IMG/VR virus record: IMGVR_UViG_3300043395_003072
Coordinates: 94,463 to 158,462 of that record
From: a virus
Strand: one strand, 5' to 3'
Length of the DNA: 64,000 bases
Shown here: piece after piece, positions 11,141 to 64,000 of the stretch
Position numbering within the stretch: position 1 is the stretch's first letter
Layout of the letters: each line of letters starts with the position of its first letter
The notes under the pieces: model-generated
Seen by the model: the letters and a program-made list of their open reading frames with translations, nothing else
Databases searched by the model: none
What the model was told of the DNA's origin: nothing
Translations under genes and position numbers: made by a program

Positions 11141-14100
11141 TTATCCTCCTAGTGCTCTTGCAATTAACATTTGCATTTCAGGCATTCTATCATCAGTGTA
11201 ATGTATCTCTGCTCTAGATTGTTCTCCAGTACTAATTCTATTTAATACAATTTTACTTGAATCTAAATCTGATACATAATTGCTATTTCTAATTAAAGCA
11301 TTACGAGTCGCATTTCTATGCATACCACCAGGCTGATACATAAAAAGATCAGCCCCTTCAAGATAAGGTTTTCTTGATACGTTTCTCACTTGAGATTCCC
11401 ACATGTCGTAATCGTGTATTTCTTGACCTGAATTATCTACATATTTGACTTTAATATCTTCTATATCCACATCCTTATGCCAGCCTATCCAATCTACACT
11501 AGGCATTGGTTTATTTCTAAAATACTCTTCCATAAGGTACATTTTCTCTCTCATATACTCTTCATCAATTACTGCCTTATCACTAGATAATAAAGAAACA
11601 TTCTCACCAGAATCTATCCTTGACCATATATTCTGATATAAATGCTTTTGATCTTCAGGTACTAGCTCAAGGATTCTTTCTCTTTCATCTTTTTGAGCAT
11701 TAGCAAAAGCATCAAAAAATCTCTTATCTGCATTTGGTAACGCCAAATAAACAGAAAGTGCATCTCCATTAGGATTCACTCCTGTTCTAGTTCTAGCTGC
11801 TAAACTTATATATCTATTTCTATCTTTTTGGTTTTCAGCTTGCTCTGCTAATTGCATGTATTTCATAAATTGAAGTTTATCAAAATGCTCATTGATTTCT
11901 TCTTTTTTCGTAACATGCATAGGTTTGCTATCAACGCCCATTATTCTCGCTGCTGAATACATTGCTGGCCTGAACCAGTCCCTTATAGGAGAATCCCAGA
12001 AAGGGTTAGCTGTACCGTAAATTCTTTCTGTTTCATAGACTTCTATAGCATCTCTAGTGTGTCCTAGAAGTTTAGAAGCAGGTCTAAAACCACCAGGAAC
12101 TAAATACTCTGCAGCAGATAATCCAGTACGTATTGCACTAGTGCCTTTTTCGTACATATATTGAGTTATATCGGAAGCTATAGGGATTCTAATAGCGTTA
12201 GGGTGTGGCTCATAGTCTCTTGTAGCAGCAAGTCTTTTTTGATGGTTCTCTACAATGTTATCGAGCATTTTAGATTCATGCTCTGTTAAAATTCCAGCAG
12301 CTTTTCTTTCGTAAAGCTCTTGTTGCATTTTAATTGTTTGTCTGCTTTGCGGAGCTACATCAGCTAATATCTTATACTTATGAATTAATGGATAGTCTTC
12401 AGGGTCTAGTCCAGCTACATCAGGATTTAATGCTTCGTACCCTTTACCAGGTAATCTTGCTGAGCCATTAGCTATTGCTCTATAAGGGTCTCCTCGTTTT
12501 AACTTCTCCGGGATATAAGAAGGCATTGAGTTTATTAATGGGTTATAAGCCTCTATTTCTGCTCTTGGTCTTGGGAATAAACGTCTAATTGGCTCTGACA
12601 TAAAACCAAAGCCACCAAGTTCTTTTTCCCAATAATCTCCAATAGAAGAATCCATTGCAGTAGAAGTTGCATACACCGGACTCATCGTTCCTAATACTTC
12701 TCTACCAGTAAAAACTTTTTGTATTATATTTTTTGTATAACCAGTCAAACCTTCTATTTCTCTAAATGCATACTGAATTCTACCAAGTGCAGGCATTCCT
12801 TGATACGGAGAAACTGGTGATCCTGGAGGTATCTCTCCTAACTCAGGAGAAGAACCGTAGCCTTTAATATAAGCTTGCTCCACTTCTCCACTCTCTTGAT
12901 TCAATCTAAAGAGCTCATCTTCATGCATCAGTTTAGGTGGTTTTAATATCTGCCCAATTGTTGATGATAGTAAAGGCCCAAGCACTGGCATATCTTCAAA
13001 AGCTGCACCTGTCATTGGGTAGGGTCTATCTTGATAGTTCTTTTCCTCTAAGTAATAGGTGAAGTTCTTAAGCATGAATCTTGTTATTGGGTTAAAGTTC
13101 TCATAATCTTCCCCCCAAACAGATTTCTCATCAGACTTAGTCATTAACATCTTATAAGCGTGGGGTCTAAAATATGAAGTCTCCCCGCCTTCATAAGGAG
13201 TACCTCCAGCTTCCCACCATCGACCTTTCTTTATCTCTACAAGCTTCTCTCCTTCATATACTGCTTTAAGCTCATCAGGATCCTCCATCATTCCAAAGAA
13301 TGCGCCAGTCATCATTTGGTGTATAAAGGCAGTACCTAATACTAATGCTCCAAATCTTTTAACAATTGGAGCTGCGCTTAATGATTCTGCTACTTCTTCA
13401 TAAGTTTTATTTCTAACAAAACTTCCATCTTTAGCTCTTACATCTTGCTGAACTCCCCCTAGCTTGATATCTACTTCACCTTCAAGGGTAGCTCCAAAAA
13501 AAGAATGCACCATTTCTGCACCAAATATTTCAGTGCGCCTCATCATATTATTAATGAATCCAGATCCTGTTGAATATCTATTATTAATTTCTACGATTTT
13601 ATTTAATAAAGATTTATTTAAATCATTATCTTTATAATACCTTGTGTGAACTTCAGATCTTGTTGCGTGTGTTAATTTATAGTTCGTATCAAGTATTATT
13701 GATTTCAACCTTCCGCTATCTTGCTCATTTAACATTTCCCTTAAAAGCACTTCATTGTCTGAAAAGAAGCTTCTTAACTTTGATCTGGATTCTTTATCTA
13801 GATTATCTAAACTAACATTCTTTATTATAGAATCTAGCGAAGACTGATACCTTTCTAGAAGTTCTGTTTTTATCTGACCTTTCTGTAGTCTTTCTGCAAT
13901 TGGATTATACTTTAAGAATTCTTCTGTATGTTTATCTGCAATTTTCCCAAAACTAATAGCATTAAAAAGTGTTCGCATTTGGATATCTTGTCTTGATCCA
14001 GGCAAAGTCACGGATCCGACGATCCCAAGCCTATTTTCTATTGCTCCATAAACTCCTCTAAAAGCATTATCAAAAGAAGATGAAATTCCTTGCTTTGGTA

Positions 14101-49034: not shown

Positions 49035-49731
49035 CTATCAAAATCTCTTTTGGTAATAACTTCTTTGAGTCAACCTCGTATAAAGCCTGCCTCAACATAG
49101 ATATTTCCTCCAGAACTCTAGAGTTGTTATTATTCTCTTGAATCTTGGCCATCATCTTAGCCTTAGATTCTCTAGTCTCCACTAACTTCTCTAACCAGCG
49201 TTCCCTGCGGCGCTCTAATTTATCAATCATATCTACTACAGGGTGCAACTTAGTAGTCTCAGCTTTCTCACCATTCTCATTAAAAGCTACCACATCACTA
49301 ATAAGAAAATCTCTACCTTCTCCTTTTTTATCTCCATTAGATAAAATCAAAACGCATCTATTCTTATACAAATCAATTAAAGATAATTCATTAACAATAC
49401 TCATCTCTACAGGATTACTAGGGTCTACATTTAAATAACTAATATAGTCTATTAATTTTTGTTCAACAAAAACAGTCTCCATAATACATTCTCTACCAAT
49501 AGGATAATCACTCTCTTCTCCTAATACTAAAGCGCCATTTACATCTCTCTCTGGTATAGGACATTTATTAATAAAAGGACACTTCTTACATCCCATACAC
49601 ATAATAGGAGAAGAAGTATAAACTCCATTCTTATAGTGATTAGACTTAGCTACAATCCTAGCTGCTTTCTCTGGAGGTAGAGAGTTCAAGTATTCATTAT
49701 GAGTGCCGCCGAAGAATTTAATAAGATCCAT
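49024..49731 (-). CDS. Putative terminase small subunit
   Basis: First gene of the operon. AGGAG Shine-Dalgarno precedes ATG 49731. Cys cluster followed by helical LHPVVD..DKLERRR..LEKL; function is inferred. Confidence 0.45.
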   Translation of the reverse strand: MDLIKFFGGTHNEYLNSLPPEKAARIVAKSNHYKNGVYTSSPIMCMGCKKCPFINKCPIPERDVNGALVLGEESDYPIGRECIMETVFVEQKLIDYISYLNVDPSNPVEMSIVNELSLIDLYKNRCVLILSNGDKKGEGRDFLISDVVAFNENGEKAETTKLHPVVDMIDKLERRRERWLEKLVETRESKAKMMAKIQENNNNSRVLEEISMLRQALYEVDSKKLLPKEILIDEE

Positions 49732-49824
49732 ATATAACTCCTGAAAATATATAATAAAAAATTTAAAATAAATAATAACATAAATCAATAATTAAATTTC
49801 TAAAAAGACCCCGGGGGTGAATTG

Positions 49825-49924
49825 AAAATATTTGGGAGTAAGAGAGCGCGAGAAAGTATAAAAAATATTTGGGAAAAAGCTGTTACCTATGACGGCAATT
49901 AGAAAAATATAAAAAATATTTGGG
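49825..49924. repeat. Three direct repeats AAAATATTTGGG in the divergent intergenic junction
   Basis: Exact copies at 49825-49836, 49862-49873 and 49913-49924. Copies 2 and 3 extend upstream to AGAAA..TATAAAAAATATTTGGG. Confidence 0.75.
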
Positions 49925-50021
49925 GGTGTTATTTTTATAGTGGTTGGCACGATCCAAAAGATCCGTGCCCACCCGGGGGGAGTAAGCCCCTGGCCGCTGT
50001 GGCCTATAGCTTGAACACACC

Positions 50022-50387
50022 GTGGGTATGCCCCACAGAAAGTTCTGTGATCACATCATGATCAAGAACAAGCTCGAGAGTATTAACAACAATCCCTGGA
50101 ACTTCCGCAAGGTCTTCAAGATCGAGTGGTGTAACCGCAATGAGGGCGTCTCTGGTTGGGCTTCGGCCCCTGCCAACATCCCTGACTTCAACGGCAGCAC
50201 CGACGACCATGAGGACTTGGGTATCATCCTCGCCCTCCAGCGCCACTATGGCACTGCGCAGGTCGACGGGATGTATGTCTCGCCTATGACGGCCCGTTGG
50301 GCCGAGGCGTGCACGGTGGGTTTCGTGGTGGATGGGTGGCGCTACGGGCAGGCCTTCGGGCTCGCCTGGCGCGTCCGCGTCCGCTGA
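50022..50387 (+). CDS. Hypothetical protein (first plus-strand gene; start uncertain)
   Basis: GC3-rich codon bias like its neighbours; ends at the start of the repeated spacer. Confidence 0.6.
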   Translation: MGMPHRKFCDHIMIKNKLESINNNPWNFRKVFKIEWCNRNEGVSGWASAPANIPDFNGSTDDHEDLGIILALQRHYGTAQVDGMYVSPMTARWAEACTVGFVVDGWRYGQAFGLAWRVRVR

Positions 50388-50498
50388 GTCGCTGTTGTCT
50401 GATCTCTAGCCGCTTAGGCGGCTCAAAAATAAAGTCCTAGGGTCACCATACCTAGGCCGAAACGCCGTGAGGCGTCCGGGGAAAGCCCCGCTGATGAG
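50381..50498 (+). repeat. ~115-bp intergenic repeat, copy 1 (copy 2 at 51758-51872)
   Basis: Near-identical run CCGCTGAGTCG.TGTTGTCTG...CTAGCCGCTTAGGCGGCTCAAAAATAAAGTCCTAGG...GCTGATGAG. Confidence 0.9.
50434..50498 (+). ncRNA. Hammerhead ribozyme HH1 (type II-like permutation)
   Basis: Hairpin CCUAGG/CCUAGG, then CC-GAAA (50459), stem III CGCC-GUGA-GGCG, UC (predicted cut after 50476), stem I CGGGG-AAAG-CCCCG, CUGAUGA-G. Confidence 0.88.
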
Positions 50499-50620
50499 AA
50501 TTCACTTGTCAGAATGCCCTTTGCAACAGGACACACACGACCATCATAGCAGCTATCAAGCTGTGTCGTGCAGTGTATGAGACTGGGCTCACCTCCCTCC
50601 CGTGCAAAAAGGAGAATCCA

Positions 50621-50881
50621 ATGCACAATCAGTTTGATCCAGAGAATCGCCAGTGGTGCGGGGAGTGGCCCATCGTGGCCATCCCCGCACCTGAGCCTGA
50701 GCCCACCCCCGAGCCCACGCCTGACCCTGAGCCTGGTATGGTCACGCGTGTTGAGCGCGTGGCCCAGGAAGGGCTTTCTATTGGTGAGATGATTGCTGAG
50801 GGGGTCTCCCTATGGACGCTTGCGTCTTGGGGGATTGCCATCATTGCGAACCTCGCTCGAAAGTTCCGTAAGAAGAACTAA
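50621..50881 (+). CDS. Small protein with a Pro/Glu repeat and a C-terminal hydrophobic helix
   Basis: AAGGAG Shine-Dalgarno before ATG 50621. Contains PEPEPTPEPTPDPEP and ends LWTLASWGIAIIANLARKFRKKN. Confidence 0.65.
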   Translation: MHNQFDPENRQWCGEWPIVAIPAPEPEPTPEPTPDPEPGMVTRVERVAQEGLSIGEMIAEGVSLWTLASWGIAIIANLARKFRKKN

Positions 50882-50886
50882 GAGCA

Positions 50887-51006
50887 CCGCTGCCAGGTGT
50901 AACTCCTGGCGAAACGACTTCCTCTCGCTTCAAGTGAGAGGTTTGCTGTGAGGTGGAATCACAGCTGTAATAGTTGTCAGGGCTTAGCCCTCTGACGATC
51001 CAGCGG
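50887..51006 (+). ncRNA. Hammerhead ribozyme HH2 (variant with branched stem III and an outer closing stem)
   Basis: GCCAGG/CCUGGC hairpin, GAAA (50911), stem III CGACU/AGUUG enclosing two hairpins, GUC (cut after 50978), stem I AGGGC-UUA-GCCCU, CUGACGA. Flanks CCGCU/AGCGG pair. Confidence 0.75.
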
Positions 51007-51224
51007 GGTCCAATCAGCATTCTTTGCTCCAAATACCTGCGTTTGTTTGCTTTTCGTTAAAAGCAGGGATATGGGAGTCACACCCATTGCAAGTGGCCAC
51101 TCCTTTCTGAGTCGTAGTCCAGTCGCTACTTATGCGGCGGTACAGTTGATGCCTCAATCAACCCTGTTACTCTGAAATCAGGTTAAAATTCAGAATCTAC
51201 TAATACGCATAAAAGGAGTATCCT

Positions 51225-51764
51225 ATGCGTAATCTTGTGAAGATGATCCTCGTGAACAACCTCCTCGTCTCTGAGACCCAGGTCACCCAGGGGCTCTTCG
51301 AGGAGGTGATGGGGTGGAACCCCACTCGCAAGGTCAGCCGCTTCTCGCCCCCCACGCCTCACCGCTGTGTAAGGGACGTGTCGTGGTTTCAGTGCGTACG
51401 CTTCTGCAACAAGCTGAGCGACCTTGAGGGGTTGCAGCGAGCTTATTTGCTTGATGAGACTGCAGAGGTAGCCTTTACAATTGAGGGTGCCAATGGCTAC
51501 AGGTTGCCCACAGCAGCCGAGGCCAAGGTCTTCGCCAACAAACTCCTCGTAGCAGTTGCCAATAGGAACTCAGAGTTCCTTCTGGATGTGCATAATCACC
51601 GCCTCAATGACCTTGGCCTCAAGGGCGTGGGTAGTTCATGGGAGTGGACTATCCAAGATGCGGATAGAAAGTTAGATAAAATTGCCACCTGCGACTCTGA
51701 GGCCAGAGGGTGGTTTATGGGTGGTTCAGTGGCGGTGACCTTCCGGGTCGTCCGCTCCCGCTGA
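51225..51764 (+). CDS. FGE-sulfatase (formylglycine-generating enzyme-like, C-type lectin fold) domain protein
   Basis: Contains ETQVTQGLF..VMG.NP, VSWFQCVRFCNKLS..EGL, GYRLPTAAE, WEW and FRVVR; AAGGAG Shine-Dalgarno. Confidence 0.8.
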   Translation: MRNLVKMILVNNLLVSETQVTQGLFEEVMGWNPTRKVSRFSPPTPHRCVRDVSWFQCVRFCNKLSDLEGLQRAYLLDETAEVAFTIEGANGYRLPTAAEAKVFANKLLVAVANRNSEFLLDVHNHRLNDLGLKGVGSSWEWTIQDADRKLDKIATCDSEARGWFMGGSVAVTFRVVRSR

Positions 51765-51808
51765 GTCGTTGTTGTCTGGTCTAGCCGCTTAGGCGGCTCA
51801 AAAATAAA

Positions 51809-51872
51809 GTCCTAGGGTCACCATACCTAGGCCGAAACGCCGTGAGGCGTCCGGGGAAGCCCTGCTGATGAG
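51809..51872 (+). ncRNA. Hammerhead ribozyme HH3
   Basis: Same layout as HH1. GAAA at 51834, GUC cut after 51851, stem I CGGGG-AAG-CCCUG (G-U wobble), CUGAUGAG. Confidence 0.88.
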
Positions 51873-51945
51873 CACCCGCACATAAACGTTACAGGCTGCG
51901 TTTACTGTGAACCTTCCAAGCCTAAAGAGGAGGAGTTCCTCAAAA

Positions 51946-52626
51946 GTGAAAGGCTGCGACTTTACTGCAGCCGAGAAGTGTCCCGTGTTCGTGGGAGACA
52001 TCCACGCTCGTCCAGAGCTGTTGGAAGCCGTCCTCCGCGATTACGGGGATTTGAGGGTCATCCTGCTAGGTGATATCCTCGACGGCCCCGGTGGGGCTCG
52101 TGGCTCTGCTGAGCTTGTCAAGATGGCGCGTAAAAACGCCGTTGAGATGGTGCTCGGCAACCATGAGCTGTATCCGATCTTCGCCACAAGCCGGCAACAG
52201 CTGGCCCAGTGGTGGGGTGAGGATCCTCATGGGAAGACCGCCGAGAGGATCTGGCAGGAGTGGATGGCGATCCACTCTCTCCTTGATGATGAGGACATGG
52301 CATGGCTTCGGTCGTGCCCCCTCTATCTGAGAGGCGAGGGCTGGATTGCCGTTCACGCAAAGACCCTTCCCATCCTTCCTGCCCAGTACGTGACTGGTGC
52401 TCCGACCCAAGCTCAGATCGAGCTTGTGGATCACACGGAGAGCACCCCGTTCTGGGCTGAGGCGTACGATGGCCGTTTCGGCCATGCGTACTTTGGGCAT
52501 ACCCGCCTTTCCAAGGTGGGGCGCGCCCAGTGGCCTCATGCGACCCTGCTCGACTGGGACGCAAAGAAGGATGGTACCTGTGGGGTGTGTGTGCTCGGCG
52601 GCACACCCCACGCGCTTCTCGGCTAA
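51946..52626 (+). CDS. Calcineurin-like metallophosphoesterase (PPP / lambda-phosphatase / ApaH-like)
   Basis: Contains GDIH, GDILDG, GNHE, VHA and FGHT motifs. GTG start at 51946 follows AGGAGG. Confidence 0.85.
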   Translation: MKGCDFTAAEKCPVFVGDIHARPELLEAVLRDYGDLRVILLGDILDGPGGARGSAELVKMARKNAVEMVLGNHELYPIFATSRQQLAQWWGEDPHGKTAERIWQEWMAIHSLLDDEDMAWLRSCPLYLRGEGWIAVHAKTLPILPAQYVTGAPTQAQIELVDHTESTPFWAEAYDGRFGHAYFGHTRLSKVGRAQWPHATLLDWDAKKDGTCGVCVLGGTPHALLG

Positions 52627-52729
52627 CGCCGAGTTCCCGAACCCTTAAGCTTTTGGGTTAATAAAGCAACAGCCCGACCCCCTAGAGTGGTCACTTCCTG
52701 AGCATGAAGGAAAAAACTGCTCACCAAAC

Positions 52730-52812
52730 CCTAGGGTTCACCATACCTAGGTCGAAACCATGCTGGGGGGGTTACACCCCCAGGCATGGTCCGGGGAAGC
52801 CCCGCTGATGAG
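52730..52812 (+). ncRNA. Hammerhead ribozyme HH4
   Basis: CCUAGG hairpin, UC-GAAA (52754), long stem III CCAUGC-UGGGGG...CCCCCA-G-GCAUGG, GUC cut after 52791, stem I CGGGG-AAG-CCCCG, CUGAUGAG. Confidence 0.88.
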
Positions 52813-52860
52813 TCAAGCTCACAGATTAAAAAACAAACCGCGCACACAAGGAGAATTCCA

Positions 52861-53556
52861 ATGCGCAACCTCATCGTCACCGCCCTCGCGATCCGCGAGT
52901 TCACCCCCACCGCCCCCATTGCTTGCTCCCTCGCCCTCCCTGCCCACACCGATACCACCACCATCGTGGAGCCCCCTGCCCCCGACATGGCGCCCATCTC
53001 TACCCCGCCGCTCATCGACATCTCGATGGGCAACATCGTAGAGCAGATGCGGGCCTTTGACCCGCCGCTCTGGGTGCGTCCCGGGGTGGCGGGGTTTAGG
53101 GTGGTGTGGGGTGAGGTCACGCCCCCAGTCCCCCTCGAGGTGGAGGTCGGGGGTGTTGGGGGTTGCCTCCCTCACGTGGCGGGGGTGTGGGACGGGAAGC
53201 GGATCAGGGTAGCCACGTGGGGGAAGAAGGGGAACAAACAGTTCCACCGCGGCGGACTGGAGGGCACGATAGTGCATGAATTTGCCCACGTACTTCAATG
53301 GTATGGGGCCGGCAACAGCATCGGTGATTGGTACTATACCAACCACCACGATGAGCAATCCCACTTGTTCAAGAAGTGGGAAAGTGTCTTGTCCCCGTTC
53401 TACGCGGGGTCGCACGAGGCGGAAAGCACCGCCGAAGTGTTCAGGGTGTTAAAGGGGTACCGTTCCGATGAGGAGTGGGAGAACAACTCCCAACTCCTGA
53501 AGGAATGGGAAGGTTTCCTTAGGGGGAACGAAGTGTTCAAGCACTTCTTCCCCTAG
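52861..53556 (+). CDS. Putative zinc metallopeptidase
   Basis: TIVHEFAHVL (HExxH) with a downstream Y.....E.TAE; AAGGAG Shine-Dalgarno before ATG 52861. Confidence 0.65.
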   Translation: MRNLIVTALAIREFTPTAPIACSLALPAHTDTTTIVEPPAPDMAPISTPPLIDISMGNIVEQMRAFDPPLWVRPGVAGFRVVWGEVTPPVPLEVEVGGVGGCLPHVAGVWDGKRIRVATWGKKGNKQFHRGGLEGTIVHEFAHVLQWYGAGNSIGDWYYTNHHDEQSHLFKKWESVLSPFYAGSHEAESTAEVFRVLKGYRSDEEWENNSQLLKEWEGFLRGNEVFKHFFP

Positions 53557-53589
53557 TCTTCCGACCTGAAGAGGTCATTAAATATACTA

Positions 53590-53660
53590 GTCCTGGGGTC
53601 ACCATACCCAGGCCGAAACGCCTCCCTTTTGGGGGCGTCCCGGGAAGCCCGGCTGATGAG
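53590..53660 (+). ncRNA. Hammerhead ribozyme HH5
   Basis: Covarying hairpin CCUGGG/CCCAGG, CC-GAAA (53615), stem III CGCCUCC/GGGGGCG, GUC cut after 53639, covarying stem I CCGGG-AAG-CCCGG, CUGAUGAG. Confidence 0.9.
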
Positions 53661-53714
53661 AGTTGTAATTCAGCACTCCTTCAGATTCAACCCACCTGCA
53701 TACAGGAGAATCCT

Positions 53715-55007
53715 ATGCAGACTAAGTCCTCGGCGGCTACCACCGCCCGCCCTAACACCCCCACCCTCCGCGACGCGGAGCAGGCCGCGCTCGCCCGGTG
53801 GAGGGCGCTGCCCACCACCACCGCCACCACCCCCACCACCCCCACCCAGGCCGCCGCGCTGCCCCCCGCTGCGCCGTCCACGGAGACCACCATGACCATG
53901 GCACAGATCGTTGGTCGCATCACCCTCAAGGTGAGCGCCAAGGAGCGCCCCGCCCGCCTCGCCCCGCCCCAGCGTGCCACCCGCCGCACCCCCCTCACCC
54001 GCGCCGCCCTCGCCACCACTCTCCCCATGCTCGAGACGCGCTACGAGCGCGTTGCGGGCACCCTGCGCCTCAACGACAAAGGGGGTGTCGTTTCGCGCCA
54101 CCCCGCTCTCACCCCCTGGGTGACTTTCGACCCGCAGTCGCGGGATTACAGCATCGATCGCTACATCGACGGCCCCGGGCTCCTCGCCCTCAGCCGCAAG
54201 GTGGGCGCCAAGGTGGTGTTCGCCAACGCCACCTTTACCGCCCTCGCCGCCCTTACCCCTGAGCAGCGCGCCCTGCGCCGCGCCGCCCGCCGCGTCGCCC
54301 GCCGCACCGAGGCCGAGCGCCTCGACGCCGAGCGCACCGCCCACGCCCTCGCCGCCGCCCACGCCCGCGCCGCCGCCCTCGAGGAGGAGGCCCAGCGCCG
54401 CGCCGAGCGCGCCCTGGCCCGCAACACCCTCAAGGCGGAGCGCACCGCCCTCGCCCTCGACCTCGCCGGCGAGATGGGCGTGACCACCGCCGCCGCCCGC
54501 CGCGCCCTCCTCGACGCGGACTGGAGCATAGAGGACGCGCGCAACGCCCTTGAGCTCGCCGCCATGAAGGCCGAGGAGCGCAAGGAGCGCAAGGAGGAGC
54601 GCAAGGAGGCCGCCGACGCCCTCGCCGCGGCCCCCGCGAAGGTAAAGACCGCCCTGAAGGGCATCGCGAATCAGGCCCTCAAGGGCCGCATCGCCCTGGT
54701 CCTCGACAGCCTCAAGGGCCGCCTGCTCGGGGTGGCCCTCAAGGCAGCCCTCGCCGCCGCCGCCACCACCCCCGACGCCAACACCACCCTCACCACCGAC
54801 CGCCTCCAGTGCATCATCGCCAGCGCTGTCGACGAGGAGCGCATCCGCCGCGATCTCGCGGTGGAGCGCAAGCTCAAGATGAAGGCGGCCATCAAGGCGC
54901 GCAGCGAGGAGGTCACCAACCTCTTCGCCCGCGCCAAGGGGGGCGACAAGGGTGTGCCTCAGGCACTCACCCTCGCCATCACCCTCGCCCGCAAGGTGCG
55001 TGGCTAA
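53715..55007 (+). CDS. Ala/Arg-rich protein with a UBA/EF-Ts-N-like helical domain
   Basis: 430 aa with an AGGAG Shine-Dalgarno. EMGVTTAAARRALLDADWSIEDARNAL matches the UBA-like pattern. Codons are extremely C-ending. Confidence 0.6.
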   Translation: MQTKSSAATTARPNTPTLRDAEQAALARWRALPTTTATTPTTPTQAAALPPAAPSTETTMTMAQIVGRITLKVSAKERPARLAPPQRATRRTPLTRAALATTLPMLETRYERVAGTLRLNDKGGVVSRHPALTPWVTFDPQSRDYSIDRYIDGPGLLALSRKVGAKVVFANATFTALAALTPEQRALRRAARRVARRTEAERLDAERTAHALAAAHARAAALEEEAQRRAERALARNTLKAERTALALDLAGEMGVTTAAARRALLDADWSIEDARNALELAAMKAEERKERKEERKEAADALAAAPAKVKTALKGIANQALKGRIALVLDSLKGRLLGVALKAALAAAATTPDANTTLTTDRLQCIIASAVDEERIRRDLAVERKLKMKAAIKARSEEVTNLFARAKGGDKGVPQALTLAITLARKVRG

Positions 55008-55008
55008 G

Positions 55009-58000
55009 ATGTCTGCTGAGAACAACAGCAACATCACCGCCACCCCCGCCAACGAGCAGGAGAGCACGATGACCACCACCACCACCACCACTACCGCCGC
55101 CCCGGCCACTCCCGCCACCGAGCAGGAGCAGGTTGTGCACACGGACAACGTCACCCTCCCCAAGGCCACCCCGTGGGATGCTTCCTTCCTTGAGGCTATC
55201 AAGGACCGGGACTTCCCTGAGGCGTTTAAGACCTTGGTGCTGGCGCACTTCAAGGAGCGCCAGCTGCACCCCATGTTGTGCTGGGGCCACCATTCCACCA
55301 AGCAGCTTGAGGAGTTCATCTCCAACCAGTTGCCCTTGGACAGCGCCTTGCGCGCGTTCCAGCTGGACACCTGGGGCAGCCGCAGCTTCATTGGGCGGCA
55401 CTTTTCGCCGCTCTTCAAGGCTCGCTGGGAGTCCCTCAAGAAGAGCCAGGAGGAGGAGGAGATGGCTGAGATCGAGCGCCTCAACAAGCTGGAGGAGGTT
55501 AAGCAGGCCGAGCGTGACGCCGATAAGGCCCAGCGCAAGGCTGAGCGTGAGGCTCAGCGTGAGGCCGAGAAGGCTCAGCGCAAGGCTCAGCGTGAGGCTC
55601 AGCGTGAGGCCGAGAAGGCTCCCAAGAAGCCTTGGAGGAATGTGCCAAACCTCCACCTCGACCGCACCGAGCTGTCCACCTACACGGTGGAGCAGCTCAA
55701 GGCTCTGGCGGTCATCAACGCGACCGCCCTCCTTGTGCAGATCGACAGCACCCTCAGCCTCAAGCTTGTGCAGACTGAGGATGGCTTGGTCATGCCCGAG
55801 AGTCCTGCGAAGCCCACGCAGATCATGAAGGGCTTCGGGACCGCCAAGAAGGCGGACCTCATCAAGCTCCTCAACTGGATGGGCTCAGGCGACATGAGCA
55901 TGCGCCCGGCAGGAGCCACCAGTGACCTCGTCAAGGCGGTTGCCCAAAACTACCGCCCTGAGGAGGAGAAGCCGGAGGAGTCCCTCGCTGAGGTGATGGT
56001 GATCGGGAAGGCCGAGAGGCAGGAGAGCGCGAAGGCCAAGAGGCGTCGCCGCGAAAGCATTGTGCAGCTTGAGGAGGCCATCAAGGCTTTCCCCGCGCAG
56101 GCTGACGCCATCAAGCCCATCAAGGAGATGGTCTCGGCGGGCGGGGATACCCCGACCCACATTGACCTCGAGCAGGTTGACCGCGCCAGCAAGGCGTTGG
56201 AGGGTAACACCCTGGAGCAGGTCAGCTCTCAGGTGGGAGCCACCTACTGCCTGACGCTCCAGGTCTACCCGACCAACGAGCGCACCGCTCATGGCGATGG
56301 CAACCATGCCCAGGTCATGAAGGTGGCCTTGGTGCCCAGTGTCGCCTGGCGCCAAGGTGCCAGCTTCTTGGTCAACCAGTTTAACAACTGGATTGGCCTT
56401 GAGCAGAACCAGGACTTGGCGAAGAAGCTCAATGCCAAGCCGTTTAAGGTCGAGGTGGACGATTTCATTTTCGTCCAAAACAAGACCGACGAGAACGGCA
56501 ACGAGTCCGCCATCCCTGAGCTCAACAGGGTATTGACGAAGCTCGGGTATTTGGCGGTCACGCCGGGCTTCTGGCTCAAGAAGAACCACCCCTACTGCGC
56601 GTGGATCAAGAGCGTTTTCAAGACGAACTTGGTTGTGCGTGGGCGTGCCCGCAGCATCGCTACCACCCCGTATCAGGCTCAGCTGTCTTTCCAGCTTGAG
56701 CGTGATGCCGAGGGCAATGTCATTGGTGTGAGCAACACCCCGGTGTTCGTCGCCGACCTCACGAAGTACGGCCATGTGGGTCTTGATGGTAGCAATATCA
56801 TCAGCAAGAACCTCATGGGTACGGGGTGGACGCCGGGGGTTGTCGCGCAGATTCGCCTGCACACCAACCCCTACATCGCCCAGTCGTACGGCGTGCAGGG
56901 CAAGGGGCTGGCTCGCGCCCACAATGCCTGGGCGGTGCACACCCAGAGCGGGTGGGTCATTAAGACCGACTTCTATGCGAAGAAGTCGATCATTGACCAG
57001 GACGACAACCTCTCCCCCGCCGAGAAGGAGAGCGCCATCAAGGCGTTGAAGGCAGAGTACCTGCCCGCAATCATCCTTCACTATGACAACGTGAAGGGCG
57101 CGGGCTCGAAGGAGCTCGAGAAGGCGGTCAAGGGCAAGACCACCCTCTTGAACCTCAACCAGTGGGGCATGGAGGATGGTTATGAGTCTGCCCTCTTCGG
57201 TGGGGTGATCGCCGAGGATTACCGCGGTCAGAGCACCACGAGCTGGCAGAACGGCCAGCTCTACAGCCCCGAGGTGCTCGACGCCAACAAGGCCTACATC
57301 CACAAGCTCCTCGACACTGCCTTCAAGAAGCTGGCGGTTTCGGGAGAGAGTGCACTCTCCGATGTTGAGGGGTTTGATGTTGGCCTGCGGCAGCTTATCG
57401 CTGCCCAGCAGGCTAGCAACCACAAGTGGGTGACGTCGGTTGCTTTTGGTGCAAACCAGAAGTGGCCCACGTTCTACTGCGAGCAGATGGATATGCCCGC
57501 AGGCTTTGTGGTCGCAGGCTCCAAGATCGGTGGGAAGGCTGACAAGCTGGCAATCACTGGCCAGCCTCAGCTCTACCACCAGTGCTTGGTGGTCGCCAAC
57601 CGTCTCAGCTGGGACGATGTCAACGCCGTCATCGAGCACCTTGATGGCGAAAAGGTCACCCTCACTGAGCTCCAGGTTAAGTGGCTGGCAGCTTGGGGTA
57701 AGATGGGGGTGTCCGATGATGATATCCTCCATCGCCTTCGCTGGATGGCTGGTGGCTTCGTGCCCAATGGCACTGAGTCGCTGATCTGGGTCTCTACTGT
57801 AGACCAGAAAACCATGCAGCGAGATTCGGACGGTGACCGCCTCTTGGTGCTTTGGGATAAGGATATGATTAAGCTTGTTGAGGATCACAACAAGTCGATC
57901 GAGGCCCTCCTTAAGCCCCACCTGGAGGTGGACAGGAAGACCGCTCTGGATGGCGACCAGAAGTACAAGGACTTGGCCAATGGCGATTGGGGCAACCCAG

Positions 58001-61000
58001 ATATCGCTGAGGAGGCCAATGAGTACATCTGCGCGCCAAACGCAGGTCAGGGGCCCACGGGCGAGTTGGTTAACGCCAACAGCGCTGTGTTGAACCACTT
58101 TGTGTGGCAGCAGGTCAACGGCACCTGGCAGCCCGAGTCAGACAAGATGCACCACATCTTGAAGCTTTACGGTTTCATGTGCCTCTTGATCCAATGCTCC
58201 ATTGACCGCCAGAAAAAGGTCTGGGCGGTCCCGGCTCTGTGCCAGTGGCTGGCGCTGGACTTATATAGTGGAGAGATCACGTCCTACGAAACCCTTGCTC
58301 CTGGTGTGGAGAAGTACAGCTTCTTCATTCAGACTAAGAGCGGCGACAAGTCCATCCGCGAGATCCCTGTGCGTACCGGCTACGCCGATATGTTCAACAG
58401 GAGCATCATCAAGCCTTGGTTGGCAATGATGATCAACTTGGTGAATGCCAAGAGCACCTGTTTGAACGACACCACTGGGGCTTCTTTCCAGAAGGTGTTT
58501 AAGGATGTCGCTCAGGCGTTCTTGGACTCCTCGAACAACCCTGGCGGGTTTGACTGGGCGGCGATCGCTCAGGCAATCGGTGCGCAGGTCTCGGCCGAGG
58601 AGCTCAAGAGCAAGTGGGTTTTCCCCGACGAGCTCTACAGCTTTAAGGATCAGGCCTCGCTCTACGTGCCTGTTCCCAAGGCTGCCCCGGGGATCAAGTG
58701 GCTCACCACCAAGGCCACCGAGGTCTACTCGGGCTGGCGGAAGGAGAAGGGTATTTCCAACTACCCCTCCAGGCAGCTCTTCTTGAAGTTGAGCGGCCTG
58801 ACTGCCGACTGGATGGCAAAGCCCAATGCCCACTTTGGCGACGATTCCAGCGCGCTGGACTTCGTCAGGGAGTTCTCGAGCATGATGGCCCGTTCTGTCG
58901 CACAGAACCTGGCTAGCGTCGCCAACAGCGAGATCAAGCAGGGGCGCGGCGGCGACACCGCCCGAGAGGCGTTGAAGGAGATCCGTGCCGCGTTGACTGT
59001 CTTTGATGTGTACCACCCCGTCAGCAAGCTTATCAAGTATGCTGTGGGGAGGGACGCCAAGCCGGCCAACGTGAGCATGGCCTGTCTCGGTCTCATCCGT
59101 ATGTGGACCAAGTCTTGGTTGACCTCAGCGGCGACAAACTCCCTGATCGAGTACTTCTCTGTACTTAATCTTTACGGGCAGATCGACGCCAACTTCGACT
59201 GGTCTGTCCAGGAGGAGACTGAAGCGACTCGGTCCGTGAAGGAGGAGGTCACCCCCATTGAGGTCGCGAAGAACGTTCTTCGCAACTTGGAGGTGGTCTG
59301 CAACGAGGAGAATAAAACCCTCCTCATGCAGATGATCGATGACGTCAATAGCGACGTCAGCCTTGCCACCCTTGTGGAGAAGAACCGCCTTGCCGCTCAG
59401 CTTCACGAGTACAGCATCGCGGCTGAGCCCACTGGTGCCGAGCGCATCCTCACCGAGTGGTTGCCTGCGCTGGAGCTGGCCCAGGACAACATCGATATGG
59501 CCACAGAGAGGCGTGAGCTTTTCCTGGATGATAGCATATTCCAGGACTTCTGTGGTCTTGTCGGGGATCCCAGCATCGTCACCGAGAGGGCGTTCCTGGA
59601 TTTTGCCCAGAGGAAGATCCTTCCCGTGTTGAGCAGGAAGCTGCTCAGCCTGACGAAGAGCCAGGCCAACCTGGCGAACCAGGCTGACACCTGCATGCTC
59701 AACTGGTACCGCCTTGTGGCGAACCAGGCGGGGTGGGACGCCACGAAGCTTGTGAATAATCTCGCAGGCTTCACCAAGCTGTACCTGCCGCACATGCTCC
59801 CTCGCACCCGCGAGATTGTGGATCTCATGACCCCCTTTGTGCAGGCCTATCGCACGAAGGTGTGGATCCTTGACATGTACGGCAAGGTCGGGTCTCTTGG
59901 TACGAGCGATCCGCAGGTCCACAATCAGCGGATGGTGACCATGGTCGAGGAGGCGGTCTTCAACATGAAGCACGTCTTCGACCCCACCAGTGGCACTCTC
60001 CGCAAGGAGAAGACGATCAAGAGTCGTCCCGAGGTGGCAGTGAGCCCGGCGCTTCGTGCCAAGTTCACCTGGGAGCTCCTTTCTGAGGGGCTTAGCCATT
60101 ACGGTCTCCACACCACTCGGCGCCCGGCGTTCATCGATACCAAGGATGGTAAGAAGATGATCGTCACTCGCACCGACCGGTGGGTTTACATGGACTCCAA
60201 GATGCCCCGCAACTTGGACATCCTGAATAAGGCCTGCGAGCAGGGTCTGGTCATCGGCCACATCTTCAACCCTGACTGGTTGAAGGTGATGTTGGAGTCG
60301 GTCAAAAACCAGCTCAATGTCCCGGAGCTCTCGGCTGATGAGAAGGTGAACCTCGAGGCGAAGAAAGACGTGCTTGAGTACGCTCTCGCAGACGTGCTTA
60401 GCATGTACGTCATTGAGGACACCTCCCCTCGCACCCACGAGAGGCAGCTACTCGGCTCGCTGGCCTTCCCTGCCTGGTACGGTGGTCGGGATAAGTGCTT
60501 CCAGCACACCCCCTTTGACAGCTACCGCACCAGCGCTCACCGCTCGGTGTGGCGCTTCATCATGAGCGTCATGCCCTTGCAGGCTGAGTTTCAGGACAAG
60601 GCAGAGCTCTACGACCGCCTGACTGGCTGCCAGACGCTTAACGCGTCGAACAGACGTGGGTTTGCGGTCAGTGAGAACACTGACTGGGTGAACGCCCTCA
60701 GCACCAGCTCTTGGGGTACGAGCACGGCCAACTCGGGCTACTCCCGGGCTCCTCGGGACTTCAACACCACCCCCGGCGACATGTTCATCAATGGAACTTG
60801 GTCGAAGCCCAATCGCAGCCCTGCTGCGGAGAACCTCGGGATGCTCGACATCCAGGTCGGGAACATCTCGTTCCAGATGAGGACCGACGCTTACGTCTCT
60901 AATGCGGGCTGCACCTTCCAGGTCAGCTCTCGCTCCAGGGAAGATTCGGAGAACTGGGTCGAGAATGCCCCCTCCGGGTTTGGGGAGTCCAAGGGAATCC

Positions 61001-61368
61001 GCGAGATGACCATCATGGCGATGAGGTCGAATGTGGTGACTGGCCGCATCAACGGCCTTGAGGTGAGCAACATTGTTGCTCAGCGCATCGCGGAGCTCCG
61101 TTACCAGGACATCAAGGGCTGCGTGGTCTCCGAGGTGGACTTCGAGAAGTTCAAGACGGAGGCGATCATCGGCTGCTGGGGTGCCACAAACGCCCTCGAC
61201 AGCATCGTCGTCTCCAAGATGTCTGACGACAGCACCTGGGGTCGCTTCAGCGCTAAGACGAGCACGGCCTGGCGCGACTTTGCCAAGGGCAACAATAGGA
61301 GCTTCAAGATCCTGCCCCCGGTGAGCTCGCGCTTTTACCAGCTCCTCTTCGCCGCGAAGGGTAACTGA
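55009..61368 (+). CDS. Single-subunit two-barrel RNA polymerase (YonO / cellular RdRP-like)
   Basis: Ordered motifs DGSNIIS, QIR...KG, RDSDGDRLLVLWD (57823-57837), GELVN and SIDRQK mirror the cRdRP motifs DG.G.IS, FQIR..G.KG, DLDGD...V.WD, G.I.N and AVD.AK. Start is ATG 55009, or 55069 which has a Shine-Dalgarno. Confidence 0.8.
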   Translation: MSAENNSNITATPANEQESTMTTTTTTTTAAPATPATEQEQVVHTDNVTLPKATPWDASFLEAIKDRDFPEAFKTLVLAHFKERQLHPMLCWGHHSTKQLEEFISNQLPLDSALRAFQLDTWGSRSFIGRHFSPLFKARWESLKKSQEEEEMAEIERLNKLEEVKQAERDADKAQRKAEREAQREAEKAQRKAQREAQREAEKAPKKPWRNVPNLHLDRTELSTYTVEQLKALAVINATALLVQIDSTLSLKLVQTEDGLVMPESPAKPTQIMKGFGTAKKADLIKLLNWMGSGDMSMRPAGATSDLVKAVAQNYRPEEEKPEESLAEVMVIGKAERQESAKAKRRRRESIVQLEEAIKAFPAQADAIKPIKEMVSAGGDTPTHIDLEQVDRASKALEGNTLEQVSSQVGATYCLTLQVYPTNERTAHGDGNHAQVMKVALVPSVAWRQGASFLVNQFNNWIGLEQNQDLAKKLNAKPFKVEVDDFIFVQNKTDENGNESAIPELNRVLTKLGYLAVTPGFWLKKNHPYCAWIKSVFKTNLVVRGRARSIATTPYQAQLSFQLERDAEGNVIGVSNTPVFVADLTKYGHVGLDGSNIISKNLMGTGWTPGVVAQIRLHTNPYIAQSYGVQGKGLARAHNAWAVHTQSGWVIKTDFYAKKSIIDQDDNLSPAEKESAIKALKAEYLPAIILHYDNVKGAGSKELEKAVKGKTTLLNLNQWGMEDGYESALFGGVIAEDYRGQSTTSWQNGQLYSPEVLDANKAYIHKLLDTAFKKLAVSGESALSDVEGFDVGLRQLIAAQQASNHKWVTSVAFGANQKWPTFYCEQMDMPAGFVVAGSKIGGKADKLAITGQPQLYHQCLVVANRLSWDDVNAVIEHLDGEKVTLTELQVKWLAAWGKMGVSDDDILHRLRWMAGGFVPNGTESLIWVSTVDQKTMQRDSDGDRLLVLWDKDMIKLVEDHNKSIEALLKPHLEVDRKTALDGDQKYKDLANGDWGNPDIAEEANEYICAPNAGQGPTGELVNANSAVLNHFVWQQVNGTWQPESDKMHHILKLYGFMCLLIQCSIDRQKKVWAVPALCQWLALDLYSGEITSYETLAPGVEKYSFFIQTKSGDKSIREIPVRTGYADMFNRSIIKPWLAMMINLVNAKSTCLNDTTGASFQKVFKDVAQAFLDSSNNPGGFDWAAIAQAIGAQVSAEELKSKWVFPDELYSFKDQASLYVPVPKAAPGIKWLTTKATEVYSGWRKEKGISNYPSRQLFLKLSGLTADWMAKPNAHFGDDSSALDFVREFSSMMARSVAQNLASVANSEIKQGRGGDTAREALKEIRAALTVFDVYHPVSKLIKYAVGRDAKPANVSMACLGLIRMWTKSWLTSAATNSLIEYFSVLNLYGQIDANFDWSVQEETEATRSVKEEVTPIEVAKNVLRNLEVVCNEENKTLLMQMIDDVNSDVSLATLVEKNRLAAQLHEYSIAAEPTGAERILTEWLPALELAQDNIDMATERRELFLDDSIFQDFCGLVGDPSIVTERAFLDFAQRKILPVLSRKLLSLTKSQANLANQADTCMLNWYRLVANQAGWDATKLVNNLAGFTKLYLPHMLPRTREIVDLMTPFVQAYRTKVWILDMYGKVGSLGTSDPQVHNQRMVTMVEEAVFNMKHVFDPTSGTLRKEKTIKSRPEVAVSPALRAKFTWELLSEGLSHYGLHTTRRPAFIDTKDGKKMIVTRTDRWVYMDSKMPRNLDILNKACEQGLVIGHIFNPDWLKVMLESVKNQLNVPELSADEKVNLEAKKDVLEYALADVLSMYVIEDTSPRTHERQLLGSLAFPAWYGGRDKCFQHTPFDSYRTSAHRSVWRFIMSVMPLQAEFQDKAELYDRLTGCQTLNASNRRGFAVSENTDWVNALSTSSWGTSTANSGYSRAPRDFNTTPGDMFINGTWSKPNRSPAAENLGMLDIQVGNISFQMRTDAYVSNAGCTFQVSSRSREDSENWVENAPSGFGESKGIREMTIMAMRSNVVTGRINGLEVSNIVAQRIAELRYQDIKGCVVSEVDFEKFKTEAIIGCWGATNALDSIVVSKMSDDSTWGRFSAKTSTAWRDFAKGNNRSFKILPPVSSRFYQLLFAAKGN
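55525..55620 (+). repeat. In-frame 45-bp tandem duplication in the polymerase N-terminus
   Basis: Two near-identical units (55525-55569 and 55570-55614) encoding KAQRKA(E/Q)REAQREAE. Confidence 0.85.
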
Positions 61369-61370
61369 GC

Positions 61371-62150
61371 ATGGAGATCAAGAGCATGAACTCTGTCCTG
61401 GCCCTCCTCCCGGCCTCTGACCGGAAGAACTTCGTCGCGAAGCTGATGAAGCTTAGCGTCGATGCGACGGAGCTGTGCAACTTCCTCAACCTCTTTCCTG
61501 AGGATGAGCGCGTCGAGGCTCTGAGCAGCTTCCTTGACGGGCAGGTGGAGAAGCCCGCTTCGGCTGGCAACACCACCTACAACGGCACCGTTAACCGGTA
61601 CGAGATCTCTGGCGGTAGCAATAACCGTATCGAGATCTCGTACGCTGGTGGCGGGTATGCCCGGCAGAGCTCCTCCACCTCAACGCCCAAGCAGGCTGCT
61701 GACCGCAGCGCTTGGAACGTCAAGGGTGAGCTCGTCTACCTCAAGGATGAGTGGGTGAGCGTCATCAAGAGCCTCATCGGCGACGGGAAGGCTCTCAACC
61801 TCTCCGCCGTTGAGGGCCTGAAGTTCTTGGCCGCCCACAAGGGTGAGGTCTGGGGTTCGATCAACCCGAGCAACTTCATGTATGTGTCGCAGGCCGCTAC
61901 CAGCATTGATGGCTTGGTTTGCGTTCCTCACACGGATGTGAAGTACGCTTCCGGTCCCGCCTGCTTCCTCACCATGAAGGCGGAGCTCTATGATGCTGCC
62001 AAGGCTGCTGGCTTGATCGTGGGCGGGGACAGCGTTGCTTCTCCGGCTGCGCCGGCCCCCAGCGCTGCTGCTCCCGCAACCAAGCCCGCCTCCGATCCCG
62101 TAGCTTCGGTGCAGAACTCTCAGGACCTCAACCTCGGTACTGCCTGGTAG
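61371..62150 (+). CDS. Hypothetical protein coupled to the RNA polymerase gene
   Basis: 259 aa, starts 2 nt after the polymerase stop, has the same codon bias and an Ala/Pro-rich tail. Confidence 0.7.
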   Translation: MEIKSMNSVLALLPASDRKNFVAKLMKLSVDATELCNFLNLFPEDERVEALSSFLDGQVEKPASAGNTTYNGTVNRYEISGGSNNRIEISYAGGGYARQSSSTSTPKQAADRSAWNVKGELVYLKDEWVSVIKSLIGDGKALNLSAVEGLKFLAAHKGEVWGSINPSNFMYVSQAATSIDGLVCVPHTDVKYASGPACFLTMKAELYDAAKAAGLIVGGDSVASPAAPAPSAAAPATKPASDPVASVQNSQDLNLGTAW

Positions 62151-62156
62151 ATCTAA

Positions 62157-62268
62157 ACTGAGCTGACTCGGCACTCCTTTCGAGGGGTGCCGAAATGGCC
62201 TCAGCTTCGGCTGAGGCCATCGGGGACTAAGTCCCCCTGACGACCCGCTTGCGGGGAGTCAGCTCAGT
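62157..62268 (+). ncRNA. Hammerhead ribozyme HH6 (five-way junction variant)
   Basis: 13-bp outer stem ACUGAGCUGACUC/GAGUCAGCUCAGU; hairpin GGCACUCCU-UUCG-AGGGGUGCC; GAAA (62192); stem III UGGCCUCAGC-UUCG-GCUGAGGCCA; AUC cut after 62221; stem I GGGGAC-UAA-GUCCCC; CUGACGA; hairpin CCCG-CUUG-CGGG. Confidence 0.8.
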
Positions 62269-62525
62269 CTTCTTTTAACTTATGGCTTTTCTGATTCGAA
62301 GCACAAAATGCAGCATCGACACTCCGCCACCGCTCCGCGGTGAGAGTGTTGCTACGCAACACTCCGCCACAGCCTCCGGCCGTGGCGTGCGTAGCGCCAC
62401 GGGCGCTACGGCAGCTGTGCCACAGGCAACAGACATACATTGTATGTCGATGGCGTCGTTGATGACAGAACGGCGCCACTGCAAGGACTCTCCTTGTAGT
62501 GCCAAGTCTCTTGAAAGGAGCACCT

Positions 62526-62849
62526 ATGTCAAACTCAGCTAACACCCCCGCAACTGCCGAGGACCTCCTGAAGGCCAAGGTGCTCTCCGCCGCGGCGACG
62601 CTCACCCAGATGGGCGCCAAGGTGAACACTAGGATGGACGAGCGTGAGACCGCTAACGGCTTGACTCGGTACTTCCAGTTCGAGACTAGCCTCGCCTCAA
62701 TCGCCACCCTGGATGCGGCCCTCCTTGAGGGTTTGCTGGTCACCGTGACCGTAGCGGCCTACCAAGGCAGCTACACCGGCAAGGAGGCCCTTGAGAAGAC
62801 AGCGGCTACCTCCGCTGCAAACGCGTTTGCCAATTTTGGCAAGCGCTAA
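62526..62849 (+). CDS. Hypothetical protein
   Basis: AAAGGAG Shine-Dalgarno before ATG 62526; 107 aa with GC3-rich codons. Confidence 0.7.
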   Translation: MSNSANTPATAEDLLKAKVLSAAATLTQMGAKVNTRMDERETANGLTRYFQFETSLASIATLDAALLEGLLVTVTVAAYQGSYTGKEALEKTAATSAANAFANFGKR

Positions 62850-62857
62850 GAAGCGGC

Positions 62858-64000
62858 CGTCCCACCACCATGGGGACGTTAATTGTCATGGTTTTCTCGT
62901 TTTGTTTCCTTTTAAGGAGACGAGACGAGACGAGGAAAGCGTGCAATGCACACCTCGTAAAAAAAGTGGAATACCGTCGTGACGGAAGCCGTAAGGCTCG
63001 AGTCGCCTGTCGAGCTGTCTCCTGGGCAGCGAAACGGAAATGCCCACCAGTGGCAGGCCGAAGCGTGCTCCCGCTTCGGTCAATCTGGCCTCCTGCTCGC
63101 CGTGCAGGAGGGTCATCTGGCTAGACTATAGCCAGCATGATTAACCAAGGAGGCCCACCGAGTGGGACTTCGGCGAACCACTTAGTGGGCCTCGAAACCC
63201 TTTACCAGGAGGGGAGACTTCGGTCTGAATCCTGGTCCTCTGTAGCCGTGCAGGGGAGTCACTTCATCAGTGATCGAACGAGGGCCCACTTAAGTGGGAC
63301 TACGGCAACCACCTCGGTGGGCCCTCAGCTGTGCTGTCACACAGGATAAAAAACGGCAGGGTCCCCTCCAGGGGGACTTAAATAAAAACTGGCGGTGGTC
63401 TACCTGTATCGGTAGAGAAGCTGATTGCGCACCTAAGGGAACGAAAGGTGTGCGCCCAACAAGTGGGTACTCTCAACGCAAGTTGAGAGGGAACTGAATC
63501 AACGACTATACTAGTTATGTCGCTGATTGAAAGGATCGAGGGAGCTAAAGCTGTGCACAGCTATGCCCTGATGAACGAGGAGTAATTAACCTCAAGTAGT
63601 CGAAGTTGAGAGCCGCGCTGATGAGCGGCGAGACAACAGTCTGGAAAACTGTTGTCTTATACCCGTGGTTGATGGGCATCAAGTGGGGAGGATTTCTAAG
63701 TGCATGCTACTCCAAAGCATTGCTTAGTGAATATCTCCCTGCTGGAGGTGGGGTGTTTTGACACCTCACCTTTGGGCTCGCCAGTATCTAAACTGGCTGA
63801 GACTTGTGGCAGCGCGAACGCGAGCCCAAGCTAACCAAATCAACCTGGATGGAGACCTAAAAATCTCCTGTCGACGCCCTCATTGAGACGCCTCCACGTG
63901 GCGAGGGTGGAGCCCAGCGAAAGCTGCGGTACTAAGTCTCTGCATCGGGTGATCTTCGCAGAAGGTCATCTAGGTGCAACCGCGCAGGACGGATTTCCTG
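62858..64000 (+). ncRNA. Candidate large structured non-coding RNA (continues past the window end)
   Basis: About 1.15 kb with no ORF showing a Shine-Dalgarno site and the local codon bias. Nearly continuous hairpins, UNCG/GNRA loops and pseudoknots. Strand inferred from G-U pairs, tetraloops and context. Confidence 0.6.

Follow-up and report, generated by a model that had tools for sequence, protein, structure and literature searches.

The stretch of virus DNA analysed here (64,000 nucleotides, positions 94,463 to 158,462 of IMG/VR virus record IMGVR_UViG_3300043395_003072, referred to below as the window) contains hammerhead ribozyme motifs in which the strand following the catalytic core forms a single base pair with the 5′ side, which raises the question of how stem II is closed and where the RNA chain enters and leaves the ribozyme. 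An earlier reading of the sequence (the original prediction) had described four such copies, HH1, HH3, HH4 and HH5, and had proposed that a hairpin at their 5′ end serves as stem II, with the strand break lying at the core. A descriptor search returned six complete hammerhead cores of type II order (block order G-S-C), all on the plus strand, intergenic, one per spacer, between 50.4 and 62.3 kb of the window, each comprising CUGAnGA and GAAA with an NUH cleavage site; in 100 dinucleotide shuffles, 98 contained no such core and two contained one. The four copies described earlier proved real, but HH2, HH6 and a conserved core-blocking tail had been left out. It is quite likely that these motifs are functional G-S-C (type II-order) hammerheads with a permuted chain, the ends of which exit via the 10.x strand of stem II and not via loop II: in class A (HH1, HH3, HH4, HH5 and their homologues) stem II is nicked between G10.1 and 10.2, and in class B (HH2, HH6 and theirs) helices are inserted after A9.

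Homologues were collected with patterns for the core and the AAG loop, in which the hairpin was not required, run on viral, metagenome and genome collections, and further relatives were obtained via a marker protein. The resulting set comprised at least 19 distinct class A and at least 12 class B sequences, together with the intermediate L122 and, as controls, 18 ordinary type II motifs; more homologues probably exist. The carriers ranged from phages of ~80–95% DNA identity to one of 123 kb whose marker protein is 26% identical. L004, from a phage with a marker protein 26% identical, was found with the hairpin-free pattern and has the hairpin nonetheless. A covariance model (R1) was built from 18 class A copies with HH4 left out; HH1, a training member, scored 87.5 bits, and the left-out HH4 reached 71 bits, compared with 34 bits at most for ordinary type II motifs.

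In class A the canonical stem II, between the two chain ends, amounted to 1 bp in 18/19 copies, compared with 2–5 bp in the 18 controls, and after CUGAUGA in HH1, HH3, HH4 and HH5 only G10.1-C11.1 can form, as had been predicted. A 6-bp hairpin ended 2 nt before G12 in 19/19 copies, and G followed A9 in every class A copy, including those recovered with patterns that did not require it. The base two before the hairpin was A in 4/4 copies with U11.2 and G in 13/15 with C11.2 (Fisher p 2.6e-4, the sequences being related), and the base between 10.2 and the hairpin was always U or C. From this covariation it follows that 11.2 is paired across a one-base bulge and that the 11.x strand is paired unbroken from C11.1 to the loop; the predicted hairpin was therefore confirmed, but not the free spacer base that was thought to separate it from G10.1-C11.1. 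By comparison of the aligned copies, a continuous class A stem II, nicked between G10.1 (3′ end) and 10.2 (5′ end), is well supported. Across the 19 sequences 99.3% of cells were paired, 6 pairs had changed on both sides and pairing lay far above slid controls (relatedness being ignored); both-sided changes were seen in stems I and III too. Covariation of the 6-bp hairpin stem, as originally claimed, holds with homologues (3/7 pairs) but within the window is limited to one pair. HH1 and HH3 are a single duplicated cassette, near-identical from the upstream stop codon with identity stopping exactly at G10.1, and because of this duplication the four class A copies of the window are thin evidence alone. 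The hairpin-versus-shuffle test per sequence was weak alone (p < 0.05 in 4/19), and the evidence for the hairpin lies in its fixed register. In the intermediate L122, four stem II pairs are contributed by the 3′ end and three by the hairpin, with the loop ends unchanged, i.e. the nick has slid to 10.4. Loop II (9–10 nt) is invariant only at G1, U2, the penultimate U and the last A, so that the conserved loop of the original prediction is retained at these positions and lost in its variable middle. Its G...A ends, present in 19/19 class A copies, fit the RNnA loop-2 motif (5′ purine, 3′ A) found in 22/27 natural hammerheads (PMC2632901). The proposal that the 5′ hairpin is stem II and that the break lies at the core is thus well supported by the fixed register, the 10.2-11.2 covariation, the RNnA loop, L122 and the class B copies whose C11.1 finds a partner nowhere but in the 5′ hairpin.

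HH1 (50434..50498, +) consists of G10.2 at 50434, a bulged U at 50435, hairpin arms at 50436-50441 and 50451-50456 enclosing loop II (50442-50450), C11.1 at 50458, GAAA at 50459, a predicted cut after GUC at 50476, stem I at 50477-50490, the core at 50491-50497 and G10.1 at 50498. HH3 (51809..51872, +) has GAAA at 51834 and a predicted cut after GUC at 51851. HH4 (52728..52812, +) carries A10.2-U11.2 and a 10-nt loop II, with GAAA at 52754 and a predicted cut after GUC at 52791. In HH5 (53590..53660, +) a G-C pair of the hairpin replaces A-U, GAAA lies at 53615 and the predicted cut after GUC at 53639. The first 11 bases and the 3′ arm of the HH1 hairpin (50434-50458) are as in a hairpin from Agrobacterium hammerhead primers (PMC3088659 Table S1), which seems to stand there before CUGAUGA as stem I; the likeness is a coincidence or reflects shared origin. 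Upstream of HH5 there is a hairpin (53563-53576) whose loop and 3′ arm contain the core-like CUGAAGAG, as is also the case in L162, L237 and L411; this sequence could not be made part of a second hammerhead, nor was it found to pair significantly.

The sequence following the class A core differs between copies and does not pair with the 5′ side (pairing of the tail with the upstream flank was above chance in 1/19), as the original prediction had it, but it is not free sequence, since the tail pairs back on the core. Complementarity of the 3′ tail to CUGAnGAG beat shuffles of the same tail in 16/19 class A copies versus 0/18 type II controls, UCAG occurred within 33 nt in 15/19 versus 0/18, and the partner base in the tail tracks N7: a U at N7 faces A or G, a C faces G, and an A is accommodated by a bulge in two copies and faces U in L376. 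The anti-core strand of HH1 (50505..50512, +) forms 8 bp with the core at 50491-50498 (p 0.01; 3′ product z −3.9) and that of HH4 lies at 52817..52824 (+; p 0.019). HH5 has candidates at 53670..53684 (+; UCAG at 53670 and 53681) that are not significant alone (p 0.07), and HH3 is without an anti-core tail. Upon folding of HH1 at increasing length, the core became paired once ~16 nt beyond A9 were present. Class A would accordingly be expected to cut mainly co-transcriptionally, before the anti-core strand, 6–25 nt downstream, is made; the anti-core hairpin could then lock the 3′ product, stop religation and cap the 5′ end of the downstream mRNA with a double hairpin.

The main rival to this post-cleavage lock is that class A is a switch, off by default, in which the tail inhibits unless a pause, a protein or an antisense RNA holds it back, cleavage being regulated or partial. 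Such a switch is possible but doubtful. It is in keeping with the core being paired at P 0.74–1.0 in full-length folds of 17/19 class A copies and with the tail-less HH3, by which outputs could differ between copies. The B2 subgroup of class B, however, points to a role after cleavage: its anti-core strand is the 3′ side of helix P0, the 5′ side of which mimics the core, so that the strand is held off in the precursor (core free, P of pairing 0.05–0.24 in 3/4 copies), and upon folding of the 3′ product alone it refolds onto its core. A long-range upstream anti-anti-core was sought in class A and none was found. The nicked-stem architecture is in any case the same under both accounts, which differ in timing alone.

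Class B was characterised by a hairpin II that ends at C11.1 and is closed by a 5′ G, with A9 followed by U or C in HH2 and HH6. In folding calculations C11.1 paired to the 5′ G at a probability of 0.78–1.0 in 12/12 class B copies, and the canonical stem II was 0 bp in 8/13 sequences (12 class B and L122). In type B1 a 3-nt linker and a closing helix follow the core. HH2 (50887..51006, +) is of this type, with P0 at 50887-50891 and 51002-51006, hairpin II with its own G10.1-C11.1 at 50892-50910, a branched stem III, a predicted cut after 50978 and the core at 50992-50998, then U; its homologues are L258, L303, L261/L374 and L411. In type B2 (HH6, L374, L413, L417) A9, hairpin IV, P0 and G10.1 succeed each other without any unpaired base, and all four copies have these zero-spacer junctions and covarying helices, the helix sequences differing between copies. 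HH6 (62158..62267, +) comprises P0 at 62158-62169 and 62256-62267, hairpin II with its own G10.1-C11.1 at 62170-62191, a predicted cut after AUC at 62221 and the core at 62237-62243, followed immediately by hairpin IV at 62244-62255. For HH6 (z −9.5) and L374 (z −5.9) the minimum free energy (MFE) structure coincided with the active secondary structure, leaving the core free, and for L413 (z −7.7) it was the active structure apart from an open 3-bp stem III base. G10.1 N7 and the A9 phosphate, which make up the hammerhead metal site, are both retained in class B. In a stacked IV/P0 helix the two strand ends flanking the nick would be adjacent and could replace the A9-G10.1 bond.

Class B copies might instead be decayed or misfolded, inactive hammerheads, since they lack the G after A9, which is among the most conserved positions, and the form is absent from the alignments described in PMC10085705. 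This is held to be unlikely: no core base is altered, and covariation of stems I, II, III, IV and P0 extends over phages whose marker identity is 62% and ~33%. A truly broken core is available for contrast at L239:3291-3406, a near-duplicate of the class B ribozyme L239:2682 with U4 changed to C, which is likely a decayed copy.

For class A, an improbable alternative is that these are minimal hammerheads of the ordinary type II, in which stem II is a single base pair and the 5′ hairpin is a non-catalytic protector of the 3′ end of the upstream mRNA. An active hammerhead with a 1-bp stem II is known (PMC3088659 Fig. 4), another hairpin lies further upstream in spacers rich in protective hairpins, and clear loop-loop pairing was not seen in the window's copies (score 3). 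Protection, however, needs neither the fixed register nor a covarying pair beside C11.1 nor an invariant G...A loop; the known 1-bp example depends on a pseudoknot between loop I and the tail that is absent here, and class B, in which C11.1 is within the hairpin, is left unexplained. That class A takes G10.1 from the 5′ side as class B does, the G two before the hairpin pairing with C11.1 over a U.C mismatch as in the ViennaRNA MFE of 12/19 copies, is very improbable, because this base is A in copies with U11.2 and C or U in two others, thus tracking 11.2 and not the invariant C11.1, and because the G after A9 is invariant.

Permuted hammerheads nicked in stem II would then fold as follows. 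All three helices are local hairpins and could form 5′ to 3′ during transcription. In class A the 3′ end would supply G10.1 only, which pairs with C11.1 and would stack across the nick on the 7-bp bulged hairpin of the 5′ sequence; in class B the hairpin would supply G10.1, and in place of the A9-G10.1 bond there would be a short linker and a closing helix in B1 and two helices directly abutting each other in B2. In either class the 10.1-11.1 pair, with the G coming from the 3′ side in A and the 5′ side in B, is expected to stack on G12.A9, and the intact core suggests standard hammerhead self-cleavage after NUH. The original prediction further held that the hairpin loop docks on loop I, and this part is only hinted at. 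The classical contact needs a 5′ U in loop 1, the motif of which is UNmYN (PMC2632901). Loop I is AAG in 12 and AAAG in 7 of the 19 class A copies, and because it is without the U that normally pairs with the loop-2 A, the classical contact cannot be assumed. The class A copies of the window show little Watson–Crick complementarity of loop I to loop II, which reaches 4 bp in L376 and 3 bp in L413; across subfamilies, own loop I/loop II complementarity exceeded that of swapped pairs (p 0.005–0.015, with loop borders set after inspection). The loop II region may make some peripheral contact with loop I, or else the adenines of loop I could dock into C-G pairs that are invariant in the hairpin.

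Several points weigh against the permuted, active hammerhead. The copies all belong to a single phage lineage that has undergone internal duplication, so that they amount effectively to about four independent lineages. UNmYN is not found in loop I, and stem II, at 8 steps, is long relative to the 5-bp stem I when compared with viroid hammerheads. At equilibrium the anti-core hairpin (~−5 to −10 kcal/mol) pairs C3-A6 in most class A copies, and the fully transcribed class A precursor may, according to the folding model, be largely inactive. With its tail, HH2 could make a canonical stem II whose first position is a U.C mismatch, and the MFE structure of HH2 partly buries the core; L261, L411 and most B2 copies are unable to form this alternative.

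A comparison with Rfam at gathering level gave no match in the window. Full alignment to an existing type II family, an outcome the original prediction had named as counting against it, was not observed: RF02276 scored best at 26 bits (HH3 at 26 and HH5 at 25.8 bits) versus a gathering cut-off of 37, with the hairpin unmodelled. In the four loci searched, none of the class A or B homologues passed the RF02276 cut-off, which 7 ordinary motifs in control loci did. The type II hammerheads of RF02276 (Perreault et al. 2011, PMC3088659) share with the present ones the order beginning with GAAA, the cleavage site and CUGAnGA of a full core, closed stems I and III, the clustering between small phage genes and, in one natural example, a 1-bp stem II. 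In RF02276, however, stem II is open and loopless between the 5′ and 3′ ends, whereas here 0–1 bp lies between the ends and loop II is in the 5′ hairpin; the majority there have a pseudoknot between loop I and the 3′ tail, whereas here the 3–4-nt loop I is, by inspection, without a complement in the tail, which pairs with the core. The pseudoknot (PK) hammerhead (structure in Zhan et al. 2024, PMC11300833) likewise has a single G10.1-C11.1, the rest of helix II being replaced by a helix with another part of the chain, but its helix II loop pairs with an extra stem-loop on helix I (pistol-like), whereas a plain hairpin 5′ of GAAA without pseudoknot is found here and no loop closes the 1-bp stem. 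The non-circular permutations SGC, CSG and GCS (Eckert et al. 2023, PMC10085705) also rearrange connectivity around an unchanged core; they have block orders other than CGS, GSC and SCG, whereas the present motifs keep the ordinary GSC. Viroid and satellite hammerheads with loop 1-loop 2 contacts (Dufour et al. 2009, PMC2632901) share the loop-2 motif with class A, but their loop II is usually 4–6 nt.

No description of the nicked-stem layout was found in Rfam or the literature searched, the alignments of Weinberg 2015, de la Pena 2010, Lunse 2017 and Perreault Dataset S1 being outside this comparison; a 2026 paper states that hammerhead variants with additional helices have been reported. According to Eckert et al. 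2023 (PMC10085705), no known hammerhead alignment has helices inserted after A9, and the block of stem I, CUGAnGA and stem II is assumed there to be interrupted by at most 1–2 nt, whereas class B inserts one or two helices. The stronger novelty is carried by HH2 and HH6 rather than by class A. On balance, and with reserve, we lean towards active hammerheads permuted at the catalytic core itself, with graded nicks (after A9, G10.1 and 10.4) in one lineage, the A9-G10.1 bond turned into a crossover into the nicked IV/P0 helix, and a core-blocking strand that would make cutting one-way or time-limited.

The window is the final 64 kb of a 158,462-nt record. The genome is circular (~160 kb), as a near-identical contig bridges the record's end to its start over ~2.1 kb absent from the record; this segment (L413:9368-11515) carries a seventh hammerhead (L413:9953), falling in the assembly gap, and tRNA genes at 11203 and 11339. 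The plus strand carries, from ~50 kb on, a GC-rich module made up of small genes and a gene for a family-less protein of 2100 aa. An AT-rich spacer with promoter-like sites (49700-50000) separates minus-strand genes (GC 0.32–0.43) from this plus-strand module (52000-64000, GC 0.58–0.65); no sigma-70 promoter or terminator matches were found at the class A hairpins. Among the open reading frames (ORFs), all on the plus strand, a small one at 50022..50387 lies upstream of HH1 and its C-terminus is similar to that of the ORF starting at 51225. A small ORF without an assigned family (50621..50881) lies between HH1 and HH2. An FGE-sulfatase-like ORF (51225..51764; PF03781, E 1.4e-4, under the Pfam cut-off) follows between HH2 and HH3, and a metallophosphoesterase ORF (51907..52626; PF00149, E 5.6e-6, phrog_246; start codon uncertain) between HH3 and HH4. 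Between HH4 and HH5 lies an ORF with an HExxH motif by eye and no family match (52861..53556), and the ~2100-aa protein without assigned function, used as lineage marker, is encoded at 54952..61368.

Searches on viral contigs returned chance matches only with a hairpin-loop-first pattern, zero or chance matches with class B patterns and nothing with protein-based locus searches; a palindrome pattern recovered L004 alone. No type II core turned up in six short contigs from distant relatives, which, as these are fragments, does not amount to absence. The contigs of RNA run X1 covered none of the ribozymes and so carry no information on cleavage. A candidate type III hammerhead (L376:2500-2570) lies beside the nicked-stem forms of the distant relative G001. 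A 28.5-kb contig, G002:C11 (L303, L404, L405), 78–89% identical to the phage, is filed under an uncultured Polynucleobacter metagenome-assembled genome; it is probably a mis-binned phage, and a host link is possible, from which no host was drawn. At 63876-63941 (+) a candidate hepatitis delta virus (HDV)-like ribozyme was seen by eye (6-bp P1 starting with G.U, P2, P3 with a 7-nt loop, P4, C then UAA), which scored 19 bits with Rfam RF02682, under the cut-off; a relative has a match of 35.5 bits at L419:8665-8741. The stretch 63185-63509 has few ORFs, many hairpins and two similar modules (63153-63195, 63283-63325) without an Rfam match. Its relatives (roughly 92–97% identity) occurred at a word depth of 200–560 in an aquatic metatranscriptome, and the stretch is possibly an abundant RNA of unknown kind.

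For clustered phage hammerheads cleavage has been shown, and the cutting of long transcripts into gene-sized pieces has been proposed (PMC3088659). By analogy, the role of the present cluster would be to cut an early polycistronic transcript, near-irreversibly, into pieces the size of genes, each with a stability of its own. Class A products, held by one base pair, would part at once, each ending in hairpins; calculated energies holding the products together did not cleanly separate the classes. A ribozyme with one or zero specific 3′-paired bases and instant product release would be useful for defined RNA ends. Some copies have the anti-core tail and HH3 does not, which offers a natural matched pair for probing the purpose of phage hammerheads. 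Class B, if true, breaks the catalogue rule that CUGAnGA leads straight into stem II (PMC10085705), and as Rfam searches at gathering score miss both classes, similar ribozymes are probably uncounted.

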